Below, in pieces: positions 6,354 to 63,042 of a stretch of 64,000 nt of DNA. The notes beneath the pieces were generated by a model. It saw only the letters and a list, made by a program, of their open reading frames with translations. It made no database searches and was not told the origin of the DNA. The first letter of the stretch is position 1; each line of letters starts with the position of its first letter. The position numbers were made by a program, and so were the translations under genes. The DNA lies in assembly GCA_022561385.1 (NCBI GenBank), contig JADFRG010000007.1, positions 14,498 through 78,497 of the forward strand, written 5' to 3'. The stretch comes from Chloroflexota bacterium (GTDB taxonomy: Bacteria; Chloroflexota; Anaerolineae; Anaerolineales; E44-bin32).

Positions 6354-7093
6354 GAGATCAATTCGTAGTGAGCAAGAATGTCGCGGACCCCTTCCGTGGT
6401 AGCTTCCATAGATACGTATTCGACCAGGTCCTTGACGTTGGAGTTAGCGTTTGCCGGCGCCGCGCTATGCTCAACGAGCCGCAAGAACGGCAGATCGACG
6501 TCGGAATCTCCGACCCCAAGCATATTCGGAAACGGGATATCGACCATGCCTGCGAGATGTGCCAGACCCCTGCCCTTGTCGACGCCGCGCGGCAGGATGT
6601 TAAGGCAAGAGGTCGAATAGACCAGATCTACTCGCTCAGAGAGCGGTCCCAGCGCCTGGGCGGTCAAATCCCCGAGTTCCGACGTGCGGGTCGGATCATT
6701 CGCAAACAAGGTCAGGCTGTAGTGTTTCCCCAGCTGAAAGTAGGCGATCTCGTCTTGAACGAGGGTCTCTTCAAGGCGGGAGGTGACATCCGCGAAGCCG
6801 TTCAGGTACTCTTCAAGCTCGGGCAATGTCATGAATCGATAATCTGCGGGGACATAGAACCCGGCCCCGTTTTCGTACACGCCGGGCAGATGCCCGTCAA
6901 TCGCCTGGAGCATCGCTTCAAGGTAGGGTGCCGGTCGGCCGGTGCAGAAGGTGATGGCGGGACGCTCCGGATCTCTTCTGGCAGCTCGATTCATTGCGCT
7001 CAACTGTTCGAATAGATCGAGGTCCAGCGGTTGCGCCTCGCCACCGGTGACAACGCCGTCAATATCGAGCACGATCAATCGAATCTCGCTCAT
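6350..7093 (-). CDS. HAD-IIB (Cof/sugar-phosphatase-like) hydrolase
   Basis: LDIDGV N-terminal motif, FCTGR, and GVGDSDVDLPFL C-terminal motif. Confidence 0.7.
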   Translation of the reverse strand: MSEIRLIVLDIDGVVTGGEAQPLDLDLFEQLSAMNRAARRDPERPAITFCTGRPAPYLEAMLQAIDGHLPGVYENGAGFYVPADYRFMTLPELEEYLNGFADVTSRLEETLVQDEIAYFQLGKHYSLTLFANDPTRTSELGDLTAQALGPLSERVDLVYSTSCLNILPRGVDKGRGLAHLAGMVDIPFPNMLGVGDSDVDLPFLRLVEHSAAPANANSNVKDLVEYVSMEATTEGVRDILAHYELIS

Positions 7094-7325: not shown

Positions 7326-7691
7326 ATGGCAACGTAACCGGAAAATAACCTCGAGACCTCGGCCAGGGATCCGGCAGCCGCCGTCGAGTTTGACGGCAAA
7401 GTCTTCGGCTGGGGGATTTAGGTTGAGGAGAGCGTAAATTACGTGCAGTTCACCGCCGAGGAGGCCGGCATCGGTGGGGCCTTCACCCAGGTGGACGAAA
7501 ACAAGCCCGCCGGCACGCTCGTCCCATACGTCACGACCGACGATATCGAGGGTTCGCTGGAGAAGATTGGGTCAAATGGCGGGTCGACCGTTGTGCCGAA
7601 GACGGAGATCCCGGGCTTCGGCCACTTCGCGGTGTTCTCCGGTCCGACCGGCAACAGGATTGGGTTGTACGCCGGTAATCCGGAAGGCTAG
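7326..7691 (+). pseudogene. Decayed VOC/glyoxalase-family gene with in-frame TAA (7335-7337) and TAG (7419-7421)
   Basis: One frame reads MAT*PENNLETSARDPAAAVEFDGKVFGWGI*VEESVNYVQFTAEE...GFGHFAVFSGPTGNRIGLY. This aligns by eye with the intact VOC paralog at 52752-53120 (DPEKLAGFYGTVFGWEI...GTHAYFADPQGIIFGV). Confidence 0.55.
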
Positions 7692-7720
7692 CAGAATCCG
7701 ATTGACCATCTAACCAGGAG

Positions 7721-7754
7721 CGGGCGACCCATTTGGGTCGCCCGGTTTGTTTGG
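7721..7754 (+). terminator. Rho-independent terminator
   Basis: CGGGCGACCC-ATTT-GGGTCGCCCG followed by GTTTGTTTGG. Confidence 0.6.
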
Positions 7755-7841
7755 TCTTAGGTGTTTGTTGTGCAAGCTAGAAGTCACTTATTCCGAGGGT
7801 CGGTGATTCCCAAGGGAATAGTGTGAATTAGCGGTCCCACG

Positions 7842-9212
7842 CTACGGAATTGTGCTTCCAATGCTCCGAGAGCAAGCATTGTCAAACTGTACGTCAAGAA
7901 TGTAATCACCTGGTTGCACGGGGTTTTGGAATTTAAACCATAGCACGCGTATTGATCCTGAACTGAAAGTTCGATCCCCTTTCCAGTCTGAATTGATTGT
8001 CTCCTCCGGCGAGCTGCCATCTTCATCCCAAATCTTGTTCGGAGGGTCCAATTCGACTCTGTCCAGGTTGGCAGCGAAGGGCCACGCGACATAGATCTCG
8101 GTGATCATGATCGTTCCTGGCCATCCATTATTGATGGTCCAATGCACATCGTTTCCAGTCCAACCAAAATTGGATAGAGAAATGCTAACGCAATCGGGTG
8201 TCGGTGAGGGAGTAATGGGTGGCGGGGTAGGAGTCGGAGGTATCGGTGTCGCGGTGGGCGCAGGGTCGATGTAGAACTCGACCGACACCCATCCGCTGGG
8301 CACGCCCTCGTCATCCTGAAGCACCTTGGCCTTTATCCGATGCAGTCCCGTGCTGATCGGGGTCGAGCCCGGCCATTGGCCGGTGCTCAGATCATGTGTA
8401 AGGCAGAAAGGATCGTTGTCGCCAAAGGGGCAATATGCATCATTGCTCTCAAGCTCGGTGTGAACTAACAGCCAGCTGCTGCCGTCGAACCATTCAATCT
8501 TCATATGAACTTCGGGGTCGCCGGAGATCCCTTCCCCATCATCATCGGGGAAGGTGGCCGGCGTGGTCGAACAAGTCAACGGATTGACGTTGTCTGGATC
8601 GAAGGCGAAAGCTTGCCCGGGTAATTCATCGGCCAAGGTGAAACGTTGATCGGGAAGCGGAGAAATGATCTCGATGTAAGGTGGAGCTGTGCATACCGGC
8701 GTATTGGAGGGAGTCGCCGAGGGACCGGCAGTTGGAACATCAGTCTTAGTCGCAGTCGGCGTGCGGGATGGGGAAGCGGAGGGGCTTGGCGACACAGTCG
8801 CTGTGGCCGTGCCCGTCGCAAACGGACTTGGAGTTGACGTAGCGGTAGGCAAGACGGTCGGCGTGCCGGTCGGGTCGCCCGGTTTCGGAGTGACAGTCGG
8901 GACGGGGCTCTTCAAGCTGTCGCTGACGTCGGCCGCACGGGCGTCCGCGTCCTCTCCTTCAGGCTCGCGATCTCGGATAACGGCCTTCACGATGCTGATA
9001 CTCAGGCTCCTCAACCGGCCCGGAAGCTTGTCCTTCCCGTAGTTAGCCAGCGCGTCTGAACCCAGGGGGGCGGGAATAAAAGACTCCGCCTCTCCCAGGG
9101 AGACGTTTGCAAACAGCAGCCAATAGCAGCCCGCAGCGGCCAATAAAAACAGCGGCAGGAACATTAAGATTGCCCGCCTACGACGGCCATCGTCGTGTTT
9201 ATCTTCCGTCAT
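7842..9212 (-). CDS. Membrane-anchored secreted protein with Pro/Thr-rich linkers and two Cys-containing globular modules; function unknown
   Basis: 456 aa with an N-terminal TM helix and long PT/ST-rich spacers. The start overlaps the stop of the upstream HD-GYP gene by 4 nt. Confidence 0.55.
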   Translation of the reverse strand: MTEDKHDDGRRRRAILMFLPLFLLAAAGCYWLLFANVSLGEAESFIPAPLGSDALANYGKDKLPGRLRSLSISIVKAVIRDREPEGEDADARAADVSDSLKSPVPTVTPKPGDPTGTPTVLPTATSTPSPFATGTATATVSPSPSASPSRTPTATKTDVPTAGPSATPSNTPVCTAPPYIEIISPLPDQRFTLADELPGQAFAFDPDNVNPLTCSTTPATFPDDDGEGISGDPEVHMKIEWFDGSSWLLVHTELESNDAYCPFGDNDPFCLTHDLSTGQWPGSTPISTGLHRIKAKVLQDDEGVPSGWVSVEFYIDPAPTATPIPPTPTPPPITPSPTPDCVSISLSNFGWTGNDVHWTINNGWPGTIMITEIYVAWPFAANLDRVELDPPNKIWDEDGSSPEETINSDWKGDRTFSSGSIRVLWFKFQNPVQPGDYILDVQFDNACSRSIGSTIP

Positions 9213-18844: not shown

Positions 18845-18882
18845 GCACGAATTCTAAGCCGGAATCAACGCCTACGCCCGAT

Positions 18883-18909
18883 AACAAAAACGCACCTCAT
18901 CGGTGCGCT
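18883..18909 (-). terminator. Rho-independent terminator after the sigma factor gene
   Basis: The minus strand reads GCGCACC-GATGA-GGTGCGT followed by TTTTTGTTAT. Confidence 0.6.
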
Positions 18910-18939
18910 TTTGTGATTGGATAATCCACTGAGGGGAAA

Positions 18940-19968
18940 TTAACTTTCCCAGTAATCCAGCAGCCGGCTGCGCTGGGAGGGGTGGCGGAGCCTTCGCAGC
19001 GCTTGAGCCTCCAGCTGGCGCGCACGTTCGCGGGTAACGCCCAGCTGATTTCCAATCGCTTCGAGGGTGTGGGTCATTCCGTCCTTCAATCCATAACGCA
19101 GTTCAAGGGCCACGCGCTCGCGTGGCGGCAGGTCTTCAAGCGCCAGGCGAAGATCGTCGCCCAACAAACTCTCAAGTGTCCAGACTTCTGGATTGTGCCC
19201 ATCCTCGTCGGGGATGAGATCGCCCAGTTCCCGATCGTTCTCCTCATCCATGGGCTTTTCGAGCGAAAGCGGCTGCTCCATTGCGTGAACGAGTTCCTCG
19301 ACGCGTTCCACGGAAACTTCCAACTTCTCCGCAAGATCTTCGAGAGTAGGATCCCGACCTAGGGTCTGGGTCAGTTGGGTCGCCGCGTGCCGTAACTTCG
19401 TGATCTGCTCACCCATGTAGACCGGAAGCCGGATGGTTCGACTTTGGTCGGATATGGCGCGCGTGACCGCCTGGCGAATCCACCATGTGGCATAGGTCGA
19501 AAATTTGAGACCGCGACGCCAGTCGAATTTCTTGGCGGCGCGCATCAGTCCGATATGACCTTCCTGGATCAGATCGGTAAATGGAACACCGCGCCCACGG
19601 TACCTGCGGGCGACACTAATTACTAAACGAGAATTTGCAAGAATCAGGTGCTCAAAAGCCGCCATTCCGTCCTGGACCTGTTGAAACAACTTCCGTCTGC
19701 GTTCGGCGACTATCCCGTCCTTGGCCAGCGCTCCACTGGACTCGTTCCCCAGCTCAATTTTCTTGGCTAGATCGACTTCGTCCTGCATCTTAAGCAGAGG
19801 CACGCGGCCAACATTCGAGAGGTACTGAGCGATTGAATCGCCCGAGTCGGCCGCACGCATCGCCGAGAGGTCAAATTCCAGATCTTCAACGGTAGGGCCG
19901 ACGCTTCCGCCCTTCAAGTTGGCGCCGCCTCGGATAATTTTGGTTACGTCCAGTATTTTGTCACTCAC
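18940..19968 (-). CDS. RNA polymerase sigma-70 family factor (RpoD-like, regions 1.2-4)
   Basis: LIQEGHIGLMRAAKKFDWRRGLKFSTYATWWIRQAVTRA (region 2) and TLEAIGNQLGVTRERARQLEAQALRRLR (region 4.2). Confidence 0.85.
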   Translation of the reverse strand: MSDKILDVTKIIRGGANLKGGSVGPTVEDLEFDLSAMRAADSGDSIAQYLSNVGRVPLLKMQDEVDLAKKIELGNESSGALAKDGIVAERRRKLFQQVQDGMAAFEHLILANSRLVISVARRYRGRGVPFTDLIQEGHIGLMRAAKKFDWRRGLKFSTYATWWIRQAVTRAISDQSRTIRLPVYMGEQITKLRHAATQLTQTLGRDPTLEDLAEKLEVSVERVEELVHAMEQPLSLEKPMDEENDRELGDLIPDEDGHNPEVWTLESLLGDDLRLALEDLPPRERVALELRYGLKDGMTHTLEAIGNQLGVTRERARQLEAQALRRLRHPSQRSRLLDYWES

Positions 19969-49445: not shown

Positions 49446-51596
<2,151 letters not shown>

Positions 51597-53867: not shown

Positions 53868-54305
53868 CTAAGCTCTGATAGCCGGGAGTAGTTCGTCTTC
53901 GATTCTTTGTTTTAGTTCGTCCCGAGCCGCGCGGAAGGCGCCTAATTTTTCGGCCTCGGACCCCACGACAGTTGAAGGATCCCTGATCGACCAGTGCCAA
54001 CGATGTTGGGCATATGGAAAGACGGGGCAGGACTCGTTGGCCTGATCGCAAACAGTAACTACATAATCAACGCGATCGTTTACAAATCCGTCCAAACTCT
54101 TCGAGACTTGATGATGGATGTCCACCCCAACCTCATCCATTGCGGCAATTGCTTCCGCGCGAACCTCACTCGCAACCGTCCCTGCGGACTGCACATAAAC
54201 GCCATCTCCGGCCAGATCTTTGAGTAGACCCTCGGCCATCTGAGACCTGGCGCTATTGTGTGTGCAAACGAAAAGCACCGTAGTTTTCGCGGACGATCTG
54301 CCCAA
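53868..54305 (-). CDS. arsC: Arsenate reductase, LMW-PTPase (thioredoxin-coupled) type
   Basis: VLFVCTHNSARSQMAEG (CX5R P-loop) plus downstream Cys residues (VTVCDQANESCP). Confidence 0.85.
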   Translation of the reverse strand: MGRSSAKTTVLFVCTHNSARSQMAEGLLKDLAGDGVYVQSAGTVASEVRAEAIAAMDEVGVDIHHQVSKSLDGFVNDRVDYVVTVCDQANESCPVFPYAQHRWHWSIRDPSTVVGSEAEKLGAFRAARDELKQRIEDELLPAIRA

Positions 54306-54551: not shown

Positions 54552-55649
54552 TCAATTCATACGGGTCGCGGCAATGTGTTGGGCTACGTACTGAGCATCG
54601 CGACCCACGCCGTAGAGGTCTTGAGAGGTAGCGGTGTATTGGTGCCTCATGCCAACGAAATACAGCCCAGGAGCAGCGGGCACCTGTCCGCGCTCGTGAA
54701 TCGGTTGCCCGGCCATATCGAATGTATCGTGTCTATTTAGTGGCTGGATGAAGTCGTATCGTGCTTGGAATCCGGTGCACCAAATTACGCTCAGAGACTC
54801 GAGCGGCACTGTTTCGCCGTCAGAGCAGAAAATACCGGCCGGGTTGAGCCCGCTCACCTTCCCGACAAGATTAACTCCATAGGTCTCTGCCAATTGACTG
54901 GGAGAGGGCGGCATCGTCCGGCCGCCTATGTCCGCCCGAAGTAGCTTTTTCCCCAGCCACGAATTCGGTTTGAGGTCCATGAGCCGAAACCACCTCATAA
55001 TTGTGTAAATTGGGATGCCTAGGACTTCAAAAGGAACGGTCAAGTTCCCGCTGACCGAGAGCGTGAGTTTGTCGAATCTCCCAGACCTGGCCAGGTCCTC
55101 ACATATCTGGACCCCACTGTTTCCACTGCCCACGATCAATACGTGCCCTTCCTCGATTTGGTCAGGATTTCGGTACTCGCGCGAATGAAGCTGGGGGATT
55201 GTTGATGGCAGCTCAGCGGCAACGAGAGGGAACTTGGGATTTCGAAAGGCGCCGGTGCAGATCACGACGTAGTCAGTTTCGTAGGTGAAATCTGGTGTCG
55301 CCACGCACCAGGTGTCGTGCTGAGTCTGTCTGACTGAAGTGGCCTCGGTGTGCTCACGTATCAAGGGATTGACCGCGGCAAGGTATGATTCGAAATATCG
55401 TAGGGCATCCGCTTTCATTCCCAACGCATCCCTGCTCGCTCCGGCCGCAAACTCCTCGGGGGAGCCGGGGAGCGAGTTCATCCAGTTGGCCGTGTTCATG
55501 TGGAACGAATCCCACCGACCGTACCATTCCGAGAATGCGCGGTCTTTCTCCAGGACCACGCTTTTAATTTGGCTTTGCTGTAGGAAGTAACTCGTAGCGA
55601 TGCCTGCCTGGCCACCTCCGACGATCACAGCCTCGACCGACCCTTCCAC
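54552..55649 (-). CDS. FAD/NAD(P)-dependent flavin monooxygenase-like oxidoreductase (ArsO-like by context)
   Basis: N-terminal VIVGGGQAGIA dinucleotide motif and a second GSGNSGVQI motif. It sits upstream of arsC on the same strand. Confidence 0.7.
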   Translation of the reverse strand: MEGSVEAVIVGGGQAGIATSYFLQQSQIKSVVLEKDRAFSEWYGRWDSFHMNTANWMNSLPGSPEEFAAGASRDALGMKADALRYFESYLAAVNPLIREHTEATSVRQTQHDTWCVATPDFTYETDYVVICTGAFRNPKFPLVAAELPSTIPQLHSREYRNPDQIEEGHVLIVGSGNSGVQICEDLARSGRFDKLTLSVSGNLTVPFEVLGIPIYTIMRWFRLMDLKPNSWLGKKLLRADIGGRTMPPSPSQLAETYGVNLVGKVSGLNPAGIFCSDGETVPLESLSVIWCTGFQARYDFIQPLNRHDTFDMAGQPIHERGQVPAAPGLYFVGMRHQYTATSQDLYGVGRDAQYVAQHIAATRMN

Positions 55650-56072
55650 AACCCTCGAACCCGCCGTCCTACGATTTTCCTAACCGCTGAATAAAGAGGA
55701 TAAACGCTCCGTATCGACTCGCCGCCACATATTATGCGGCAAAGTCTGCCCATTTAAGGTTACGAGCATTCCTTTCCACTCCACTGAGCTCTATCGACAA
55801 TCTACCAGGAACTTTAATTCGCAGGACTCGTGCGAGTGCCTGGGTCCGCGAATTTAGCTCATCACTAAAAATAGAAATCCAGGTGGTTCATATAGGTAGA
55901 CGAGATCAAATTTGCGATCATATCTTTCCGCGCTCGGATTCTGATCCATCCATCTCGGGGGTTGAGATTTGGTACCCGAACTTCCTCCCTCTCGGACCTG
56001 TATGGGACGCCGACTCCACCAGTGATTTCACGCAGCTGGGAACAGCTAACCGGGATGTACAGCCAGATTCCC

Positions 56073-56101
56073 TTGACAGACAGATGGGCCTACCCTATTA
56101 T
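56073..56101 (+). promoter_or_regulatory. Near-consensus sigma-70-type promoter for the mer cluster (TTGACA-17 nt-TATTAT)
   Basis: TTGACA at 56073-56078, a 17-nt spacer, and TATTAT at 56096-56101, about 70 nt upstream of merA ATG 56174. Confidence 0.55.
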
Positions 56102-56117
56102 ACCCATAGGGGGTATA
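56099..56117. promoter_or_regulatory. Inverted repeat TATACCC-N5-GGGTATA, a candidate CsoR-family operator overlapping the -10 element
   Basis: Perfect 7-bp arms. G/C-tract-centred TACCC...GGGTA repeats resemble CsoR operators as I recall them from Bacillus copZA. A CsoR-family gene lies in the same cluster. Confidence 0.5.
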
Positions 56118-56173
56118 GGGATGTAAGAAGATCGGAAGTCCCTGCATCCAAAAACATGGAAGTTGAGGAGAAT

Positions 56174-57838
56174 ATGGCAGGACAAGAGAAAATAAGTTTC
56201 GACATCCGAGGGATGACCTGTCCCTCGTGCGAGGTGCACGTTGCGAACGCAATAAAAAGCGTCGAGGGCGTGTTATCGGTCGAGATTCCCGGATGGGAAT
56301 CCTCAGAGGCGGAGGTGGTCGCCGAGCAAGGGATCGATGCCAAATCGTTTGCAGAGGCGGTTCTACAGGCAGGCTATGGAGCCAGCGTTAGGGCGCGGCA
56401 ACCAGTAGATGGAAAGACAAGCTCTAATGGAAAAGGCGATGGCCGGTTCGACCTGATGGTGATCGGAGGGGGCTCAGCCGGCTTCGCGGCCGCCATCAAA
56501 GGCGCCGAACTGGGTTTCAAAGTGGGCCTGGTGGAGGCGGGTGAGATCGGAGGCACCTGTGTGAACGTGGGGTGCATCCCGTCCAAGACCCTCATCCGGT
56601 CGGTGGAGCTGTATCACCAGGCCGGGCAAGAGAGATTCAAGGGGATCAGCACCTCCCAGGGACCGATCGACTGGCCCCAGGTTATAGATCACAAGGATGA
56701 GCTCGTACGCGATCTTCGGAAGGCGAAGTACTCGGACGTGCTGAAGGCTTATCCCGAGATCACCTATATCCAGGGTACAGCAACGCTGCGTGGGGGCAAT
56801 GAGCTGGAGATCGACGGCGAGGCGTATGCACCGGGAAAAATAATTATTGCCGCCGGCGCAAGCCCGTGGGCGCCTCCGATCCCCGGGCTCGCCGAATCTG
56901 GATACCTGGATAGCACGGCCGCCTTAGATCTCAGAGAGATCCCCGAATCGCTGATCGTGCTCGGTGCGAACGCGGTGGGCCTGGAGATCGCGCAGATCTA
57001 CGCTAGGGCAGGAACCAACGTCACGGTTTTAGAAGTGCTGCCTCGAATTGCGCCGTTTGAAGACGAGGAAATCAGTGCCGCCCTGACTGGATACTTGGAG
57101 AACGAAGGCTTACAAATTGTGACCGGATTTCAGACCGCCTCCGTGGAGAAAGCGGAAGGACGCTACACGTTGCGTGGGACCCAGGATGAGGCCGACTTGA
57201 CTTTCGAAGCTGAGCAGCTGCTGGTGGCCACGGGGCGACGCCCAAATACGACCGGTCTCGGTTTGGAAGAGGCGGGAGTCAAGCTCGGTAAGCGTGGGGA
57301 AATCGTTGTCGATGAGCACCTCGCGACCGACAATCCGGAGGTTTACGCGGTTGGCGATATCCTCGGGCGGGATATGTTTGTTTATGTTGCAGCTTACGAC
57401 GGAATCCTGGCGGCCGAGAATGCGCTAAGCCAGGCCGGCCGAGTCTACGACGCCGATTACATCGCCCGCATAACGTTCACGGACCCGCAGATCGCCTCCG
57501 CAGGGCTGACCGAGGCACAGGCCCGAGAGCGGGGCTATGAAGTTAAGGTCAGCACGCTCGAGATGAAACACGTCCCGCGTGCCCTGGCGGCGCGCGACAC
57601 CCGTGGACTTATCAAGCTGGTGGCGGACGCCTCCACAGATCGCCTGCTCGGGGCGCACATTCTCGCGCCGGAAGCAGGAGAGATGATTCAGACCGCAGTA
57701 ATGGCCATCAAGTTCGGCATAACGGTGAGTGAGATGAGGAGCATGATGTTTCCTTATCTCACCAACGCGGAAGGCCTGAAACTAGCGGTGTTGGCCTTCG
57801 ATAAAGACGTCGCCATGCTGAGCTGCTGCGCGGGGTGA
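56174..57838 (+). CDS. merA: Mercuric reductase MerA with an N-terminal HMA (NmerA) domain
   Basis: RBS GAGGAG 4 nt upstream of ATG 56174. GMTCPSC HMA motif, GGTCVNVGCIPSK redox disulfide, YVAAYDG, FPYLT (Tyr instead of His), and the C-terminal LSCCAG pair. Confidence 0.9.
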   Translation: MAGQEKISFDIRGMTCPSCEVHVANAIKSVEGVLSVEIPGWESSEAEVVAEQGIDAKSFAEAVLQAGYGASVRARQPVDGKTSSNGKGDGRFDLMVIGGGSAGFAAAIKGAELGFKVGLVEAGEIGGTCVNVGCIPSKTLIRSVELYHQAGQERFKGISTSQGPIDWPQVIDHKDELVRDLRKAKYSDVLKAYPEITYIQGTATLRGGNELEIDGEAYAPGKIIIAAGASPWAPPIPGLAESGYLDSTAALDLREIPESLIVLGANAVGLEIAQIYARAGTNVTVLEVLPRIAPFEDEEISAALTGYLENEGLQIVTGFQTASVEKAEGRYTLRGTQDEADLTFEAEQLLVATGRRPNTTGLGLEEAGVKLGKRGEIVVDEHLATDNPEVYAVGDILGRDMFVYVAAYDGILAAENALSQAGRVYDADYIARITFTDPQIASAGLTEAQARERGYEVKVSTLEMKHVPRALAARDTRGLIKLVADASTDRLLGAHILAPEAGEMIQTAVMAIKFGITVSEMRSMMFPYLTNAEGLKLAVLAFDKDVAMLSCCAG

Positions 57839-57943
57839 GACGGAAAAACCCAGGGTTCGTCGGCTGAAGCAGGAGTTGCTCGATTGGTGATAGTCCCCTT
57901 ATTGCCCCCATCCGCCGAAGTCTTTCGGATAGGAGAGAACAAA

Positions 57944-58210
57944 TTGTCGTCAACTAAATCGAACGCGGTACCGATTACATTCAAAGTAATGGGAATGAGC
58001 TGCATTGACTGCACGCCGTTGATTACAGACTATCTGAGCGCCCAGCCGGGGGTACTGGAAGCAGCGGCCGACTATGAAGGCGGGAAGGTTATGGTGACCT
58101 ATCAACCGGAGCGTACTTCGCCCGAGGACCTGGCGCGGGCCATAATCGCCTCAGGCACATCCACCGACTGGAAGCACGAATTTAACCCGATCCTGGAGCC
58201 CGCATCCTGA
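57944..58210 (+). CDS. Heavy-metal-associated (HMA) domain metallochaperone-like protein
   Basis: GMSCIDC motif in a ferredoxin-like roughly 70-aa domain. TTG 57944 is preceded by GGAGAG. The track start at 57884 is also possible. Confidence 0.7.
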   Translation: MSSTKSNAVPITFKVMGMSCIDCTPLITDYLSAQPGVLEAAADYEGGKVMVTYQPERTSPEDLARAIIASGTSTDWKHEFNPILEPAS

Positions 58211-58235: not shown

Positions 58236-59156
58236 TTGCCTGGCGGCCGTCCGGATCCTCAGCGTATTCGCCGCGTGACGTCTACTGCCGGTGATACTTC
58301 TACGCGAAAAGGAACTACGCATCGACCGATCCAAAATGGAGGGACAAGGACCTCGATAAGACCAATCCTGTCCGCCTTGGTACTCGTATTGGTGGCAACG
58401 GCGTGCAGCTCGCGCTTCCTGCCCGTCGGCGACGTCCCTGAACCAGCAGCTCAGCTCAGGGCGCAGCCTGAAGTGGAAGACCAGGCGTTGGAGGTTTCCC
58501 CGGCTGAAAGTGGTTTCTCCGGAAGCCCCAGCTCGACTCCGGACGAGATTGTTCTCAGTCCGACTCCGGTTCCGGTCGCGCCCCAGCCTGTTCCGGATTT
58601 TGTCGGACAGGAAGTGGAGGAACCCGCGGATCCCGCAGTCCTGGCCGAGATCGGGGTGTTTGCCGAGATGCGCGACAACCTGGCCAGCGGGGACCTGGCG
58701 CCGGACTTCGAAGTGCGTGCGATCGGAAACTGGACCTTCAGCCTCTCTGCCCAGCGCGGCTCCTATGTGCTCGTGGTACCGACCGCCATTGGATGCGGAG
58801 AGTGCGTCTTCACCATGAATCAGTTGGCCGCGGCCTACCCGGATTACCGTGACAAGAATTTGCAGCTGGTGCTTATAAACATGTATCCGGAGGATGAGCC
58901 TAAGTCCTGGGACGCCTATGTGGAGGCCTACCCTGATTTAGGTGCCGTATGGGGAGTGGTCTCATCGGTCAATTTTGTTGTGGACTATGACATCCGGTCG
59001 CTGGGGACGATCCTGCTGGTCGATCCGGAAGGTAAGCTGGTCTTCCGAAGCGACTTCCCACTGATCGAAGAGGAACTCCGTCAGCTCTTCGACCTGGCCA
59101 CGAGTGGAAAGTCTGAGGTCTCGGAGATCTCAAGTCCGATGCCGGTGATTATCTAA
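58236..59156 (+). CDS. TlpA/ResA-like thioredoxin-fold lipoprotein (Cys form, C-G-E-C)
   Basis: TM/lipobox LVLVATAC, a long acidic/Pro-rich linker, then SYVLVVPTAIGCGECVF and a cis-Pro-region-like GTILLVDPEGK. The start codon is uncertain. Confidence 0.7.
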   Translation: MPGGRPDPQRIRRVTSTAGDTSTRKGTTHRPIQNGGTRTSIRPILSALVLVLVATACSSRFLPVGDVPEPAAQLRAQPEVEDQALEVSPAESGFSGSPSSTPDEIVLSPTPVPVAPQPVPDFVGQEVEEPADPAVLAEIGVFAEMRDNLASGDLAPDFEVRAIGNWTFSLSAQRGSYVLVVPTAIGCGECVFTMNQLAAAYPDYRDKNLQLVLINMYPEDEPKSWDAYVEAYPDLGAVWGVVSSVNFVVDYDIRSLGTILLVDPEGKLVFRSDFPLIEEELRQLFDLATSGKSEVSEISSPMPVII

Positions 59157-59157
59157 T

Positions 59158-59988
59158 ATGACCTCTGAAGACACTCAAGCCGTCGAGCCGAGACCTACCC
59201 CTTCTGGCTGGCTATACCCCGTCGTGGGGCTGCTGGCGTTTGCGGCGATCGGCGTGGGCTCATGGATCTTCCGCTCAGGAAATCTGGCGGCGCTTCCTCT
59301 GGCCTGGGCCTTCTCGGCCGGCATGCTGGCTACGGTCAACCCCTGTGGGTGGGCCATGCTGCCTTCCTATGGAGCCTACTATCTCGGCTCGCGCGAGGCA
59401 GGTTACGAGCAGCGGCCGTTAATTCTCCGCGGCGCGGAAGGATTCCGTCTAGGGCTGCTGATGACGGCTGGCTTTCTGGCTGTATTCAGCGTGGTGGGGG
59501 CGATCATCTCGCTCGGCCTACGCGTGCTGATCCAGGCCATGCCCTTTCTTGCCATCCTGGTCGGCGCTGGATTGGTAGGTCTCGGACTGTGGCTGCTTTT
59601 CGGAGGCTCGCTGCGACTTTCCATCCCAACTCCAAAAATCCAGGCGCAGGCGCGCAATCCGAAATCAGTATTCTTGTATGGAATGGCCTACGGATTCGCC
59701 TCACTTAGCTGCACCCTGCCAATCTTTATGGTCGTGATTGGCAGCAGTCTGGCAACCGGCACGCCGGGCGAGGCGGCGGTTATGTTTGGCAGTTTCGGAG
59801 CTGGAATGGCGCTGGTCCTGATGGCGGTGGTCATCAGCATCGCGCTCGTGAAAGGAGCCATCGTCGAACAAGTACAGGCCGTGCTCCCGTACGTGCACCG
59901 GTTTGGCGCAGCACTGCTTGTGTTTGCGGGCGCCTACCTGATCTGGTATCAAGCCCGTTACTTGCCATTTTTCCTTTCCACGTTCTGA
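59158..59988 (+). CDS. ccdA: CcdA/DsbD-family transmembrane thiol-disulfide electron transporter
   Basis: Polytopic, with two membrane-embedded Cys motifs: VNPCGWAMLP and SLSCTLPIF. Confidence 0.8.
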   Translation: MTSEDTQAVEPRPTPSGWLYPVVGLLAFAAIGVGSWIFRSGNLAALPLAWAFSAGMLATVNPCGWAMLPSYGAYYLGSREAGYEQRPLILRGAEGFRLGLLMTAGFLAVFSVVGAIISLGLRVLIQAMPFLAILVGAGLVGLGLWLLFGGSLRLSIPTPKIQAQARNPKSVFLYGMAYGFASLSCTLPIFMVVIGSSLATGTPGEAAVMFGSFGAGMALVLMAVVISIALVKGAIVEQVQAVLPYVHRFGAALLVFAGAYLIWYQARYLPFFLSTF

Positions 59989-60007: not shown

Positions 60008-60580
60008 ATGCCTGGCACTAAAAGCAAACCTAACTTACGGCCACAACGCTGGAGGCAAGCCGCACGTCGACGAGGCGTGTTGTGGGCTGTGGTGGGCGGG
60101 CTGGGTTTATTCGTGGCCTGGCAGGTGATTTCCAACCCATTGCCGACCACCAAAGCACAGTCCCTGGCCGGTCTGGCTCCGGACATTACGCTGACGACCC
60201 AACAGGGGGAATACCGCCTATCCGAGCAGAAGGGGGAGACGGTCGCGCTCTTCTTCGCGTTTGTAGGTTGACCGAGCTGCGCGCGGGAGGTTCCCGCGCT
60301 CAATCGAATTCGAGCGGAATTCGGCGTTCAGGTGGTAGCGATCAATCTCTTGCCGCAATACAACAGTCTCGAGGAGTGGCAAGCTTTTCTTGGGGAATTT
60401 GGCGCGACCGATTTCGTATGGGCCGCGGACACCTATGACCAGCTTGCTTCGCGGACTTATAACGTTCGGTCATTGGGCACCACGATCATCATAGACCGCG
60501 AGGGGCAGATGGTTTATCGGGACGAGGTGGCCAGCACGTATGAGATGTTAAAGCCGGCCGTGTTGACCGCTCTGGACTAG
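60008..60580 (+). CDS. TlpA/ResA-like membrane-anchored thioredoxin-fold protein, predicted selenoprotein (G-U-P-S-C; TGA 60269-60271 read as Sec)
   Basis: ORFs 60008-60271 and 60332-60580 share one frame with TGA as the only stop between them. The joined sequence reads ...GETVALFFAFVG-U-PSCAREVPALNRIRAEFG...GTTIIIDREGQ, which matches the FWAxWCxPCxxExP redoxin context. Confidence 0.7.
60281..60299 (+). promoter_or_regulatory. Candidate bacterial SECIS hairpin for UGA 60269
   Basis: GCGCGGG(A)-GGT-(T)CCCGCGC, a 7-8 bp GC stem with a GGU-containing loop about 17 nt after the UGA. Confidence 0.5.
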
Positions 60581-60600: not shown

Positions 60601-60879
60601 ATGGAGAATTCCTGGATATCGATCAAAGGTTATGTGATGGGTGCCTTGGCCTTCATCTCCTGCCCCTGTCACCTGCCGATTACCCTGCCACTGCTTGTGG
60701 TTGTTACAGCCGGCACCGCCTTCAGCGCCTGGCTGCAAAACAACTTGTTCGCCGTCGGCGGCGCGTCGACGGTGTTTTTCGTCGGCTCCTTGGTGCTGGC
60801 AATCAGATGGAGCGGCAGGCGGGCTCGCGTCCGCCATCGTGTAGAATCGACGATGCGACCACAGAAGCTCATCAAGTAA
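60601..60879 (+). CDS. merE: MerE-like small mercury transporter
   Basis: Two TM helices. GALAFISCPCHLPITLPLL closely resembles the MerE LTCPCHLPIL motif, recalled from Tn21 MerE. Confidence 0.65.
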   Translation: MENSWISIKGYVMGALAFISCPCHLPITLPLLVVVTAGTAFSAWLQNNLFAVGGASTVFFVGSLVLAIRWSGRRARVRHRVESTMRPQKLIK

Positions 60880-60892
60880 GGGAGGTAGAAAA

Positions 60893-61198
60893 ATGTCTGT
60901 CGCCACAGCGCCACCGCTTACAACCTATCTCGATCCAGAACTGATTGGAAACCTGCAAAATCGACTCAATCGCATCGAGGGATCTGTTCGCGGCGTCAAC
61001 CGCATGCTGGAAGACCATGAAAACTGCGACGATATCGTCGTGCAGCTATCGGCGATCAAAGCTGCCGTGAATCAGGTCACGATTAAGCTGTTGGAAGGAC
61101 ACATGAACACCTGCCTGCTTGAGTGCGCGGCCACGGGCGACCTGGAAGCGCTTGAACATTTCAGGCGCTCCATGGCGCTTGTGATGAAGAACTCGTGA
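60893..61198 (+). CDS. CsoR/RcnR/FrmR-family metal-sensing transcriptional repressor (C-H-C fingerprint)
   Basis: 101 aa with L.NRLNRIEGSVRGV.RM (DUF156 signature). The ligand positions are ENC...H-x3-C (GHMNTC). Confidence 0.85.
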   Translation: MSVATAPPLTTYLDPELIGNLQNRLNRIEGSVRGVNRMLEDHENCDDIVVQLSAIKAAVNQVTIKLLEGHMNTCLLECAATGDLEALEHFRRSMALVMKNS

Positions 61199-61310: not shown

Positions 61311-61511
61311 GTGACGAAGACGGATGAATGTCCCTATTGCACGGAAATGCTCGCGCCGGATCTGCTGCACATCTGCCCCGTAGGATGCTGCTACGTTGAG
61401 GGGTATGAGGGCAAAGAAAAGGTCAAATGCTCATACTGTGAACTGCCGTTCGAAATCTTGGCAGGACACGCCTGTTTCGAGCTCATCGCGCTGACCGAAC
61501 CTGCGCAGTAG
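61311..61511 (+). CDS. Small Cys-rich protein (9 Cys in 66 aa; CxxC...CxxxCC...CxxC...C), function unknown
   Basis: GTG start. The ORF is followed by a strong terminator. The zinc-ribbon-like Cys spacing reads CPYC...CPVGCC...CSYC...C. Confidence 0.45.
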   Translation: MTKTDECPYCTEMLAPDLLHICPVGCCYVEGYEGKEKVKCSYCELPFEILAGHACFELIALTEPAQ

Positions 61512-61565
61512 CACGCGCATGGAGCAAGCGCTCGCGCACCGACTTCTGCAAACACCGAGCATTCA

Positions 61566-61592
61566 CTCCACCCTTCGAGGTGGAGTTTTATT
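61566..61592 (+). terminator. Rho-independent terminator ending the merA...Cys-rich operon
   Basis: CTCCACC-CTTCGA-GGTGGAG followed by TTTTATT. Confidence 0.7.
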
Positions 61593-61665: not shown

Positions 61666-63042
61666 ATGAGCGATGCATACGATGTCGCGGTAATCGGCGC
61701 GGGACAAGGCGGTCTGCCGGCCGCACACATGGCGGCCAATTTGGGCGCCAAAGTCCTTCTCGTAGAGGATCGGGAGGTGGGCGGAACTTGAGTGAATGAG
61801 GGGTGCATCCCCACTAAGACCTTGTTAAGGTCTGCCGAAGTTATGCACTTGGTACGAGATCGATCGGCCGAGTTTGGCGTGCGCGGAATCGATCCCAAGA
61901 GTGTCTCGTTCGATCTGGCAGCCGCGGTGGCCCGAAAGGATAACATCGTGGCCGGGATCCAGGCCGGGATCTACAAAAACCTGGATCGAAACAAGAACAT
62001 CACCTTTATGAAGGGCCATGCGGAATTCACCTCACCGGTCGACATTCGGATCGACGGCACGCTGGTGACGGCCGAAAATAGCGTCCTGGCGGTTGGCTCC
62101 CAGCCTGCGCCGTACGCCATTCCCGGCCTAAAAGAGGCTGGATTCATCACAAATTACGAAGCGCTCAAGCTGGAAGAGCTCCCCAACTCCATGATTGTTA
62201 TCGGGGGCGGATACGAGGGAGTGGAGTTTGCCCAGATGTACGCTCGCTACGGTACGGCGGTCACAATGCTCGGACGTGCGCCACGCGTGATGCCTAAGGA
62301 GGAGCCCGAACTCTCTGAGAAGCTGGGCGACATACTCCGGGAGGAAGGCGTGGATCTCCACACTTCGACCGAAGTGGTTCGAGCGGGCGCGGAGAACGGC
62401 GCGCGTTTCGTTTTGGTGCGAGAGGCGGGGTCTGAGCGACGTTACGAAGCGGAGGTCTTGCTGCTGGCGGTTGGCCGCAACGCCCGAGTCGAGAATCTGG
62501 GTTTGTCAGAGGCGGGGGTGGAGATGGATGGGCCCTATGTGGGTGCAGACCGGCGCTTGCGAACGTCGGCAAGCAACATCTGGTCGCTCGGCGACGCCAA
62601 TGGCGGGCTTATGTTTACCCACCGAGCCACCTACGACGGCCCCATTGCAGCGCTCAACATCGTGAAAGCCCTGGGCCGGGAGGTGGATTACCGAGTGGTG
62701 CCGAGGGCAGTCTTTACGGAGCCTACCCTGGCGAGCGTCGGCCTGACCGAGGCCGAGGCGAGGGCTCAAGGCCATGAAGTGAGGGTAGGAACCGCGGATT
62801 TTGCCGGATCAGGTCGGGCGAAGGCCATCGGCCTGCCGGTCGGGATGGTTAAGCTGATTGCAGACGACGGCACGGGGGAGCTGCTAGGTGGCCACATCCT
62901 TGGACCCCGGGCCGACGATCTAATCCACGAAGTGGTTACCGCCATGTACAAGAAAGGTTCAGCAGAAGCGATCGCCAAATCCATACACGTGCATCCGACC
63001 CTGAGCGAGGTCGTGAAGCGGGCCGCGAAAGCACTGCGATGA
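61666..63042 (+). CDS. Class I pyridine-nucleotide disulfide oxidoreductase (Lpd/GR-like), predicted selenoprotein with Sec in the redox-active pair (GGT-U-VNEG-C-IPTK; TGA 61789-61791)
   Basis: ATG 61666 lies 5 nt after GGAGGA. Its N terminus is MSDAYDVAVIGAGQGG...LVEDREVGGT, then TGA, then in the same frame VNEGCIPTKTLL... (ORF 61792-63042). The C terminus has the HVHPTLSE His-Glu dyad and no MerA-type CC tail. Confidence 0.7.
61817..61833 (+). promoter_or_regulatory. Candidate bacterial SECIS hairpin for UGA 61789 (alternative: 61791-61815)
   Basis: AGACCTT-GTT-AAGGTCT (7 bp stem, GUU loop) lies about 33 nt after the UGA. A second possible structure, AGUG/CACU plus GGG-UGCAU-CCC, starts directly after the UGA. 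Confidence 0.4.

Follow-up and report, generated by a model that had tools for sequence, protein, structure and literature searches.

Surveys and reviews of mercury resistance (mer) operons list only MerR, ArsR-type regulators and MerD as their regulators, with some lineages deemed unregulated (PMC3466566), and CsoR goes unmentioned in a further mer survey (PMC8261052). The ArsR-type repressors, which include Streptomyces lividans MerR and Sulfolobus solfataricus aMerR, control mer genes by repression that is relieved by Hg(II) (PMC3466566). For the CsoR family, reviews list Cu, Ni/Co, formaldehyde and persulfide as effectors (PMC11672702, PMC8643695). The type-2 operators of S. lividans CsoR are pseudo-palindromes of about 21 nt with the consensus ATATACCCCTNAGGGGTATAT, in which a 5'-TAC-X9-GTA-3' dyad flanking C/G tracts is indispensable and each site is occupied by two CsoR tetramers (PMC3902906). 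Here we describe a 64-kb stretch of DNA from a Chloroflexota bacterium (contig JADFRG010000007.1; 64,000 nt, hereafter the window, whose positions are used throughout) in which an inverted repeat at 56099-56117 overlaps the promoter of a seven-gene mer operon. An earlier note, made from the letters of the window alone, had suggested that a CsoR-family repressor takes the place of MerR at this promoter. Our analysis leads us to read the repeat as the operator of a CsoR-family repressor, encoded by the last gene of the operon, that would control the operon's sigma-70-type promoter and be derepressed by Hg(II); we put the probability of this reading at roughly 0.6.

The promoter consists of a -35 hexamer, TTGACA (56073-56078, plus strand), and a -10 hexamer, TATTAT (56096-56101, plus strand), separated by a 17-nt spacer. 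The merA start codon (ATG, 56174) lies 72 nt past the -10 with a ribosome-binding site, GAGGAG, in front of it, and a GTG at 55883 in frame with merA only reflects an open frame that crosses the promoter. TTGACA-17-TATTAT was the sole match of at least 11/12 to the sigma-70 consensus on either strand of the window, where first-order Markov simulations predicted a mean of 0.1 such sites, and a promoter consensus scan returned it as the sole sigma-70-like site within 54-64 kb. The sigma-70 reading is reasonable because the window encodes an RpoD-like sigma factor (18940-19968, minus strand). The inverted repeat, to which no strand is assigned, is perfect: TATACCC (56099-56105) and GGGTATA (56111-56117) enclose the spacer ATAGG (56106-56110), and the repeat begins at the fourth base of the -10 hexamer, the final three bases of which belong to both elements. 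A nested repeat overlaps it, with CCCTAT at 56093-56098 and ATAGGG at 56106-56111 and, in a second copy, at 56115-56120. A generic perfect 7-bp inverted repeat would not be unusual in 64 kb; the non-random feature is that this very sequence stands at this very place, the box (14 specified bases, exact) being found once in the window with about 1e-4 occurrences expected from base composition. Single-strand folding of the repeat region was unremarkable (z = -0.84, 38 of 200 shuffles folding equally well) and an Rfam search of the leader and promoter region matched no family, suggesting that the repeat acts as a double-stranded protein site rather than as a hairpin. A known RNA element in the leader was rejected on the Rfam result.

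Some 90 close relatives of the regulator were found, every one in a metagenome or a metagenome-assembled genome (MAG) labelled Anaerolineales or Chloroflexi. In one such locus (L086, from JGI sample 3300003885), CsoR is 81% identical and the merA DNA 78% identical, and the region upstream of merA could not be aligned save for TTGACA and a 36-nt island that spans the -10, the operator and a few bases beyond (56096-56131, plus strand; 34/36 identical), TATTAT and the box being unchanged. TTGACA also stands at the merA promoters of five further relatives (L083, L002, L003, L005 and L006), where it is followed by a 17- or 18-nt spacer and a -10 ahead of merA, and in the same five a C-tract/G-tract pseudo-palindrome lies directly after the -10 or within about 10 nt of it, upstream of merA (for example ATGCCCC-TG-GGGGCAT and AAATACCCTATG-GGGG-CATAGGGTATTT). 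The earlier note had described a near-consensus promoter about 70 nt upstream of merA and a perfect repeat starting within its -10; both were recovered at exactly those coordinates, the first as the only 11/12 match and the second as the only such box in the window. The nested CCCTAT...ATAGGG repeat that it also reported held only in part: it is present in the window, but its left arm CCCTAT is not kept in L086, where the right-hand ATAGGGATG is.

Two of the related loci bear on the regulators found in these organisms. L003 (Chloroflexi) carries two MerR-family genes directly after merA-csoR (7388-7882, plus strand, and 7893-8321, minus strand), whose top matches, CadR/PbrR and MerR, both fell below curated cutoffs. 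In L081, where CsoR is 89% identical, a copper-type P1B-ATPase gene at 6796 is preceded (~6690-6725) by TTGACA, a 19-nt spacer and TAAACT, and the spacer holds a perfect dyad, TTCCAG-CCA-CTGGAA, characteristic of a CueR/MerR-style promoter. This arrangement hints that copper and mercury may have swapped regulator families in these organisms.

The repeat was then compared with described CsoR operators. The window site reads TTATACCCATAGGGGGTATAG, with 56101-56115 forming TAC-CCATAGGGG-GTA, and it matches all of the strongly conserved positions (3-8 and 14-19) of the Streptomyces consensus; the TAC-X9-GTA dyad, the C/G tracts, the AT-rich ends and the overlap with the -10 of a type-2 operator are all present. 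An exact search of public metagenomes with the 19-mer, TATACCCATAGGGGGTATA, gave at least 120 matches on unrelated contigs (gut, marine, soil and bioreactor), mostly beside Tyr-type csoR, copZ or copA genes, and it is striking that the full operator sequence is kept across such distant bacteria. Among the 80 metagenome loci examined (L087-L166), a csoR, copA or small HMA gene lay within 4 kb of the 19-mer in 54, copA was present at 20 and merA at none, and the CsoRs that could be read beside it were of the Tyr-Cys copper type (42 Tyr, 1 Trp). Judged by these matches, the 19-mer at 56099-56117 is a bona fide and very common CsoR operator sequence. A mercury-specific operator sequence was rejected on the same counts. 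Because the operator DNA is identical to that of copper CsoRs, any mercury specificity must reside in the protein.

The csoR-family gene (60893-61198, plus strand; 101 aa) matches PF02583, the Trns_repr_metal family, at 80 bits against a cutoff of 22.8, and its AF2 model (mean pLDDT 85) places helices at residues 15-40, 45-80 and 84-100. Among structures in the PDB its closest match was Geobacillus CsoR (4M1P, 8e-17), with InrS (5FMN) second and S. lividans CsoR (4ADZ) also found. Cys45, His70 and Cys74, the x-C-H-C fingerprint, are invariant in an alignment of 28 relatives, as are Arg24 and Arg27 of an RLNR motif (24-27) and Gln51. The numbering of the three ligands is identical to that of B. 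subtilis CsoR, and the x-C-H-C set was present in all but one of 87 sampled loci, the exception (L047) having Tyr at position 70. DNA binding by S. lividans CsoR requires the RLxR motif and a conserved Gln, and binding was not measurable once Arg57 or Gln81 was changed to Ala (PMC3902906); after we renumbered the 4ADZ alignment, these two residues fell opposite Arg27 and Gln51 of the window protein. The second shell is different, Asn44 and His89 replacing the Tyr and Glu of copper CsoRs, a pair (Tyr before the first Cys, Glu in helix 3) whose allosteric importance for Cu(I) is reported from M. tuberculosis CsoR (PMC8643695). An extra cysteine, Cys78, is kept in Anaerolineae and most Acidobacteriota members and is Ser or Ala in Gemmatimonadota; in the model it lies one turn from Cys74 on helix 2, and it is possible that it provides a third thiolate in the Anaerolineae/Acidobacteriota subgroup. 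An N-terminal Y-L-x-P-E motif is conserved in mer-type CsoRs.

The genes around the regulator are likewise those of mercury rather than copper resistance. The operon comprises merA and a merE-like gene with no copper-export ATPase, and no second csoR, CopA or P1B-ATPase was found in the 64 kb, a negative that covers the window and not the whole genome. A phmmer search of all six-frame open reading frames (ORFs) of the window with three MerR-family queries found no MerR homologue (E <= 0.01), and three ArsR-family queries (phmmer) found no ArsR homologue; MerR- or ArsR-type control was rejected on the absence of such a gene from the window and on the wrong promoter geometry. The window system thus has every structural feature looked for in the CsoR family and in type-2 operators, and neither of the two that are specific to copper CsoRs (the second-shell pair and a cop regulon).

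We next consider relatives beyond the Anaerolineae. One genome per GTDB species was scanned and 80 loci were returned, of which about 34 Bacillota loci (38-51% identity) were classical csoR-copZ-copA operons. For association tests we used 87 sampled loci, 53 without Tyr44 and 34 with Tyr44/Glu89, and scored mer or P1B-ATPase genes within 7 kb. Tyr44 and Glu89 are present in 34 of 34 cop-linked CsoRs and in 0 of 53 mer-type members. MerA, MerB, MerE, MerT or MerC was encoded nearby in 40 of the 53 loci without Tyr44, against 0 of 34 of the Tyr type (Fisher p = 1.3e-13, a nominal value for loci that share ancestry), whereas a P1B-ATPase was found at 6 of 53 mer-type and 24 of 34 Tyr-type loci. 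Where a P1B-ATPase gene does lie near a mer-type csoR, it is of the ZntA type or has no CsoR box in front of it, and at L004 and L035 an ArsR-type ORF lies just upstream.

The csoR-mer pattern recurs in four phyla with three operon architectures. Within Anaerolineae, csoR terminates or trails merA/merE clusters, which merB and merT join in L005, and merB is divergent from merA in L086. Across the relatives as a whole, MerB and MerT are added in L005, L030 and L086. Gemmatimonadota place csoR first, in csoR-merT-merP-(merC)-merA(-merB) operons with an ATACCC-N4-GGGTAT box inside or overlapping the -35/-10 region (for example TTGACT-17-TATAAT in L029), and Acidobacteriota and Latescibacterota have csoR-merTP pairs behind ATCCCC-N-GGGGAT or TATACCC-N5-GGGTATA boxes. 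When 775 kb were scanned with a neutral box definition (two complementary flanking bases, CCC, 1-7 nt, GGG), 41 of 122 boxes fell within the 2.1% of sequence just upstream of csoR or merA (p ~1e-37), and several of those outside these regions precede other mer genes. In two acidobacterial csoR-mer clusters (L014, 11395-11889, and L021, 11180-11665), a CopZ_Nterm_CC putative Fe-S metallochaperone (NF047645, 134 bits, above cutoff) is encoded beside a MerP-like gene. No cultured or plasmid-borne relative above 60% identity was found in PLSDB, and all clade members come from MAGs or metagenomes except L018 ('Acidobacteriia bacterium', not labelled MAG). The members have the Cys-His-Cys site and the N-terminal YLxPE motif in common, have lost the Tyr/Glu copper-coupling pair and often carry a fourth Cys. 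We consider the odds slightly better than even that they form a distinct CsoR clade devoted to sensing Hg(II) for the mer operons of Chloroflexota, Acidobacteriota, Gemmatimonadota and Latescibacterota. A family of mercury regulators would then have been recruited independently a third time, after MerR and the ArsR type, and these would be the first CsoR members with mercury as cognate effector, with the operator grammar of copper CsoRs retained and specificity re-engineered wholly within the protein.

These observations suggest how the promoter may work. Transcription would start near 56108, inside the operator's central ATAGG, because the -10 lies at 56096-56101. Without inducer, CsoR tetramers (two per operator on the Streptomyces model) would occupy about -11 to +9 and keep RNA polymerase out, and with csoR inside the operon the repressor would limit its own synthesis. 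Cytoplasmic Hg(II) is predicted to bind Cys45' at the start of helix 2 of one protomer together with His70 and Cys74 at the end of helix 2 of its partner, possibly joined by Cys78 one helical turn away, and binding would lower DNA affinity, as in other family members, and derepress the operon. MerR's role would then be filled by another protein family that acts by simple repression and derepression, with no promoter distortion. Repression by CsoR at the mer promoter is well supported by the sequence comparisons, and Hg(II) is the probable inducer, given the gene context and the loss of the copper-coupling residues. The remaining proposals of the earlier note agree with what we found. The repeat, which it likened to CsoR operators of the TACCC-N-GGGTA type, fits the published type-2 dyad and all conserved positions of the consensus (PMC3902906). 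The cluster's only regulator is, as it stated, a CsoR-family protein with the C-H-C ligand set, and its suggestion of such a repressor in place of MerR is borne out by the lack of MerR and ArsR homologues in the 64 kb and by a clade that, in four phyla, is linked to mer genes whose promoters bear C/G-tract palindromes. That the logic differs from MerR-type activation by distortion is consistent with a 17-nt spacer that holds no dyad and with an operator placed on the -10/+1 region.

Several points weigh against an Hg(II)-responsive CsoR at this promoter. Operator binding, transcription start and inducer are predictions made from sequence. The putative operator is identical to ordinary Tyr-type copper-CsoR operators and is in itself uninformative about mercury, and it could be bound by a copper CsoR whose gene lies beyond the 64 kb. 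In CsoR, Cys-His-Cys is the site for Cu(I), and in vitro the protein will almost certainly bind Cu(I) and Ag(I). Cys78 cannot be a general Hg ligand, being unconserved in Gemmatimonadota, and as a universal third ligand it was rejected. The genes of L003 show that a mer locus can hold MerR-type regulators alongside CsoR. Across the clade, 13 of the 53 members have no mer gene within 7 kb (six of them are on loci shorter than 7 kb and two lie beside P1B-ATPases), and the sampled loci are phylogenetically related, so the p values overstate their independence.

The alternative that survives best accepts the site as a functional CsoR operator and makes Cu(I) or Ag(I) the inducer, with the mer-like operon either part of a copper/soft-metal regulon or cross-regulated by a copper CsoR elsewhere in the genome. 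The exact 19-mer is, after all, a common copper-CsoR operator with Tyr-Cys-type readable neighbours and copA at 20 of 80 examined loci, Cys-His-Cys is a Cu(I) ligand set (PMC8643695), and related islands also bear Cu-ATPase and multicopper oxidase genes (L086). We nevertheless think this unlikely: the clade is without both second-shell residues that all 34 cop-linked relatives keep, and it sits in mer, not cop, operons, with a mer gene near none of the Tyr-type loci and a P1B-ATPase near only six of its own 53. The ATPases that do occur nearby are ZntA-type or without CsoR boxes, and there is no copA in the window. Less probable again is an operon-encoded CsoR that senses some other signal, whether organomercurials, Cd/Zn/Au, persulfide or other thiol-reactive species, or redox state. 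His70 is invariant, whereas persulfide sensors have an x-C-x-C fingerprint (PMC8643695), and what constantly accompanies csoR from phylum to phylum is merA, merT, merP and merB rather than sulfur or nickel genes; what speaks for such a signal is that the family also senses persulfide and formaldehyde besides metals (PMC11672702), that the closest solved relatives include the Ni sensor InrS, and that thiol/selenol redox proteins abound in the operon (two of TlpA type, one of them with selenocysteine (Sec)), with a Sec flavoprotein adjacent. That the inverted repeat is no protein operator but a chance palindrome, an RNA or DNA hairpin or a MerR-type site is effectively refuted, since, although perfect 7-bp repeats with some spacer are not rare and the nested CCCTAT/ATAGGG repeat could suggest a hairpin, the fold is unremarkable with no Rfam family, the predicted transcription start lies inside the repeat, the spacer is 17 nt without a dyad where MerR promoters have 19-20 nt, no MerR gene is in the window, and the exact sequence, so rarely expected, is conserved in L086 and recurs beside metagenome csoR genes.

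The operon assigned to the CsoR-family repressor comprises seven genes, all on the plus strand with short gaps: merA, an HMA protein gene, a TlpA-like gene, a membrane protein gene, a Sec-thioredoxin-like gene, a merE-like gene and csoR. MerA, mercuric reductase (56174-57838), has an N-terminal HMA domain, a CVNVGC active site and a C-terminal CC pair (tail ...MLSCCAG), exceeds the TIGR02053 equivalog cutoff (552 bits vs 454) and matches Pfam HMA, Pyr_redox_2 and Pyr_redox_dim. The merE-like gene (60601-60879) encodes a small membrane protein with a CPCH motif that matches PF05052 MerE at 39 bits against a cutoff of 22.8, with NF010310 as top NCBIfam match; a bona fide MerA and a MerE-family match above the Pfam cutoff together identify this as a mer operon. 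Between them lie a small MerP/CopZ-like HMA-domain protein with a GMSCIDC motif (57884-58210, start codon uncertain; PF00403, 40 bits; top NCBIfam match the HMA part of MerTP), a TlpA/ResA-like thioredoxin-fold protein with a long N-terminal region (58236-59156; AhpC-TSA, Thioredoxin_8 and ResA matches) and a polytopic membrane protein with conserved Cys (59158-59988). The last of these matched no Pfam or NCBIfam family and is syntenic in relatives, with orthologues 81% identical in L002 and 53% in L006 and others in L081, L083 and L086. The fifth gene (60008-60580) encodes a second thioredoxin-fold (ResA/TlpA-like) protein and contains an in-frame TGA at 60269, within the motif FVG-U-PSC; a strong hairpin begins 11 nt past the TGA, and ResA is matched when U is read as C. 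This TGA is shared by L002, L081 and L083-85, and L006 has Cys at that position. From these features the product is probably a selenoprotein that gene callers split in two.

A consensus scan found no further promoter-like site inside the mer cluster, and the simplest reading is a single transcript inferred to run from the 56073 promoter, with csoR last and autoregulated. Downstream of csoR lies a Cys-rich 66-aa ORF (61311-61511, plus strand; CPYC...HICPVGCC...CSYC...HAC) whose membership in the operon is uncertain; orthologues at the same position are 52-80% identical in L001, L002, L006, L081 and L082, and L083-85 match only the C-terminal half (58%). A terminator-like hairpin with a T-run, found by consensus scan (61565-61586, plus strand), is a candidate 3' end of the mer transcript. 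Beyond it, a syntenic FAD pyridine-nucleotide-disulfide oxidoreductase gene (61666-63042, plus strand) has an in-frame TGA at 61789 (GGT-U-VNEG-C) that replaces the first Cys of the redox-active CxxxxC, where MerA paralogues have Cys. The TGA is kept in eight orthologues (L001, L002, L006 and L081-85), and gene callers give pieces of 41 and 399 aa. With U read as C the protein passes TIGR01350 lipoamide_DH (422 bits vs 408.8), and it has no C-terminal Cys pair. This flavoprotein is probably a selenoprotein, too, and its own transcription unit; by sequence it looks like a Sec-containing MerA paralogue or a dihydrolipoyl-dehydrogenase-like enzyme syntenic with the mer genes. No tRNA-Sec was found in the window. 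Divergent from the mer promoter, two minus-strand genes (53868-54305 and 54552-55649) encode an ArsC-type low-molecular-weight phosphatase and an ArsO-like flavin monooxygenase (140 bits, below cutoff), and the region around the promoter looks like a metal/metalloid resistance island. A MerB-like match at 18880-19137 turned out to be the sigma-70 gene. Read from its first start codon, the GyrB ORF (49446-51596, plus strand) would begin with some 85 additional residues, enriched in Lys, Ser and Thr, that may be a true N-terminal tail or may stem from the choice of start codon.

We found no link between CsoR and mercury in the literature searched (PMC3466566, PMC8261052, PMC11672702 and PMC8643695 included), coverage that is incomplete and makes 'unreported' provisional; the absence may be because clade members are nearly all derived from MAGs or metagenomes. 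What is new here is a CsoR-family repressor and operator wired to a mer operon and representing a multi-phylum clade, pointing to an undescribed family of mercury-responsive switches. If the clade senses Hg(II), the CsoR family would gain a new effector and mercury resistance a third family of regulators, and mer control in abundant uncultured phyla of soil, groundwater and sediment would be explained. The clade would also provide a small model protein, of about 100 residues, for studying how Cys-His-Cys ligands respond to Hg(II) while ignoring, or not, Cu(I), improve the annotation of genes now called 'metal-sensitive transcriptional regulator' or 'FrmR family', and supply a non-MerR part for mercury biosensors. 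A thiophilic sensor combined with simple repression is not conceptually shocking as logic.

Compared with MerR (Tn501/Tn21 and Bacillus RC607), the window system would play the same part, Hg-dependent control of merA and transport genes from one promoter operator; a thiolate-based metal site is common to both, and the Gemmatimonadota csoR holds the first-gene position often held by merR. The fold, however, is unrelated, with no winged-helix MerR helix-turn-helix, and the promoter has an optimal 17-nt spacer without a dyad, whereas MerR promoters have 19-20 nt with the operator in the spacer. Here the operator begins inside the -10 and runs downstream, overlapping the -10/+1 region, and the predicted action is repression and derepression only, without activation by DNA untwisting. 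This repression-only logic is shared with the ArsR/SmtB-type mer repressors, from which the system differs in protein family and operator type; it is not new for mer control, mer operons having recruited non-MerR regulators before. InrS, RcnR and NreA (Ni/Co) are precedents for a CsoR scaffold retuned to another metal with C/G-tract operators kept, and InrS, like the window protein, is without the Tyr before the first Cys; these sensors, which govern Ni/Co efflux, have a further ligand in an N-terminal His (H-C-H-C or H-C-H-H), in contrast to the window protein with its mer neighbours and no conserved N-terminal His. The Cu(I) CsoRs (B. subtilis, S. lividans, Geobacillus and S. aureus; cluster 1 in the sequence similarity network of PF02583) share the PF02583 three-helix protomer, x-C-H-C and RLxR plus Gln with the window protein, and their operators, likewise on the promoter, are indistinguishable from this one (TAC-N9-GTA, C/G tracts); an autoregulated operon is, by inference, shared too. 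The targets here are instead merA, merE, HMA and thiol-redox genes, not copZ/copA, and the protein has Asn44/His89 for Tyr/Glu, an extra Cys78, an N-terminal Y-L-x-P-E and, as its predicted effector, Hg(II).

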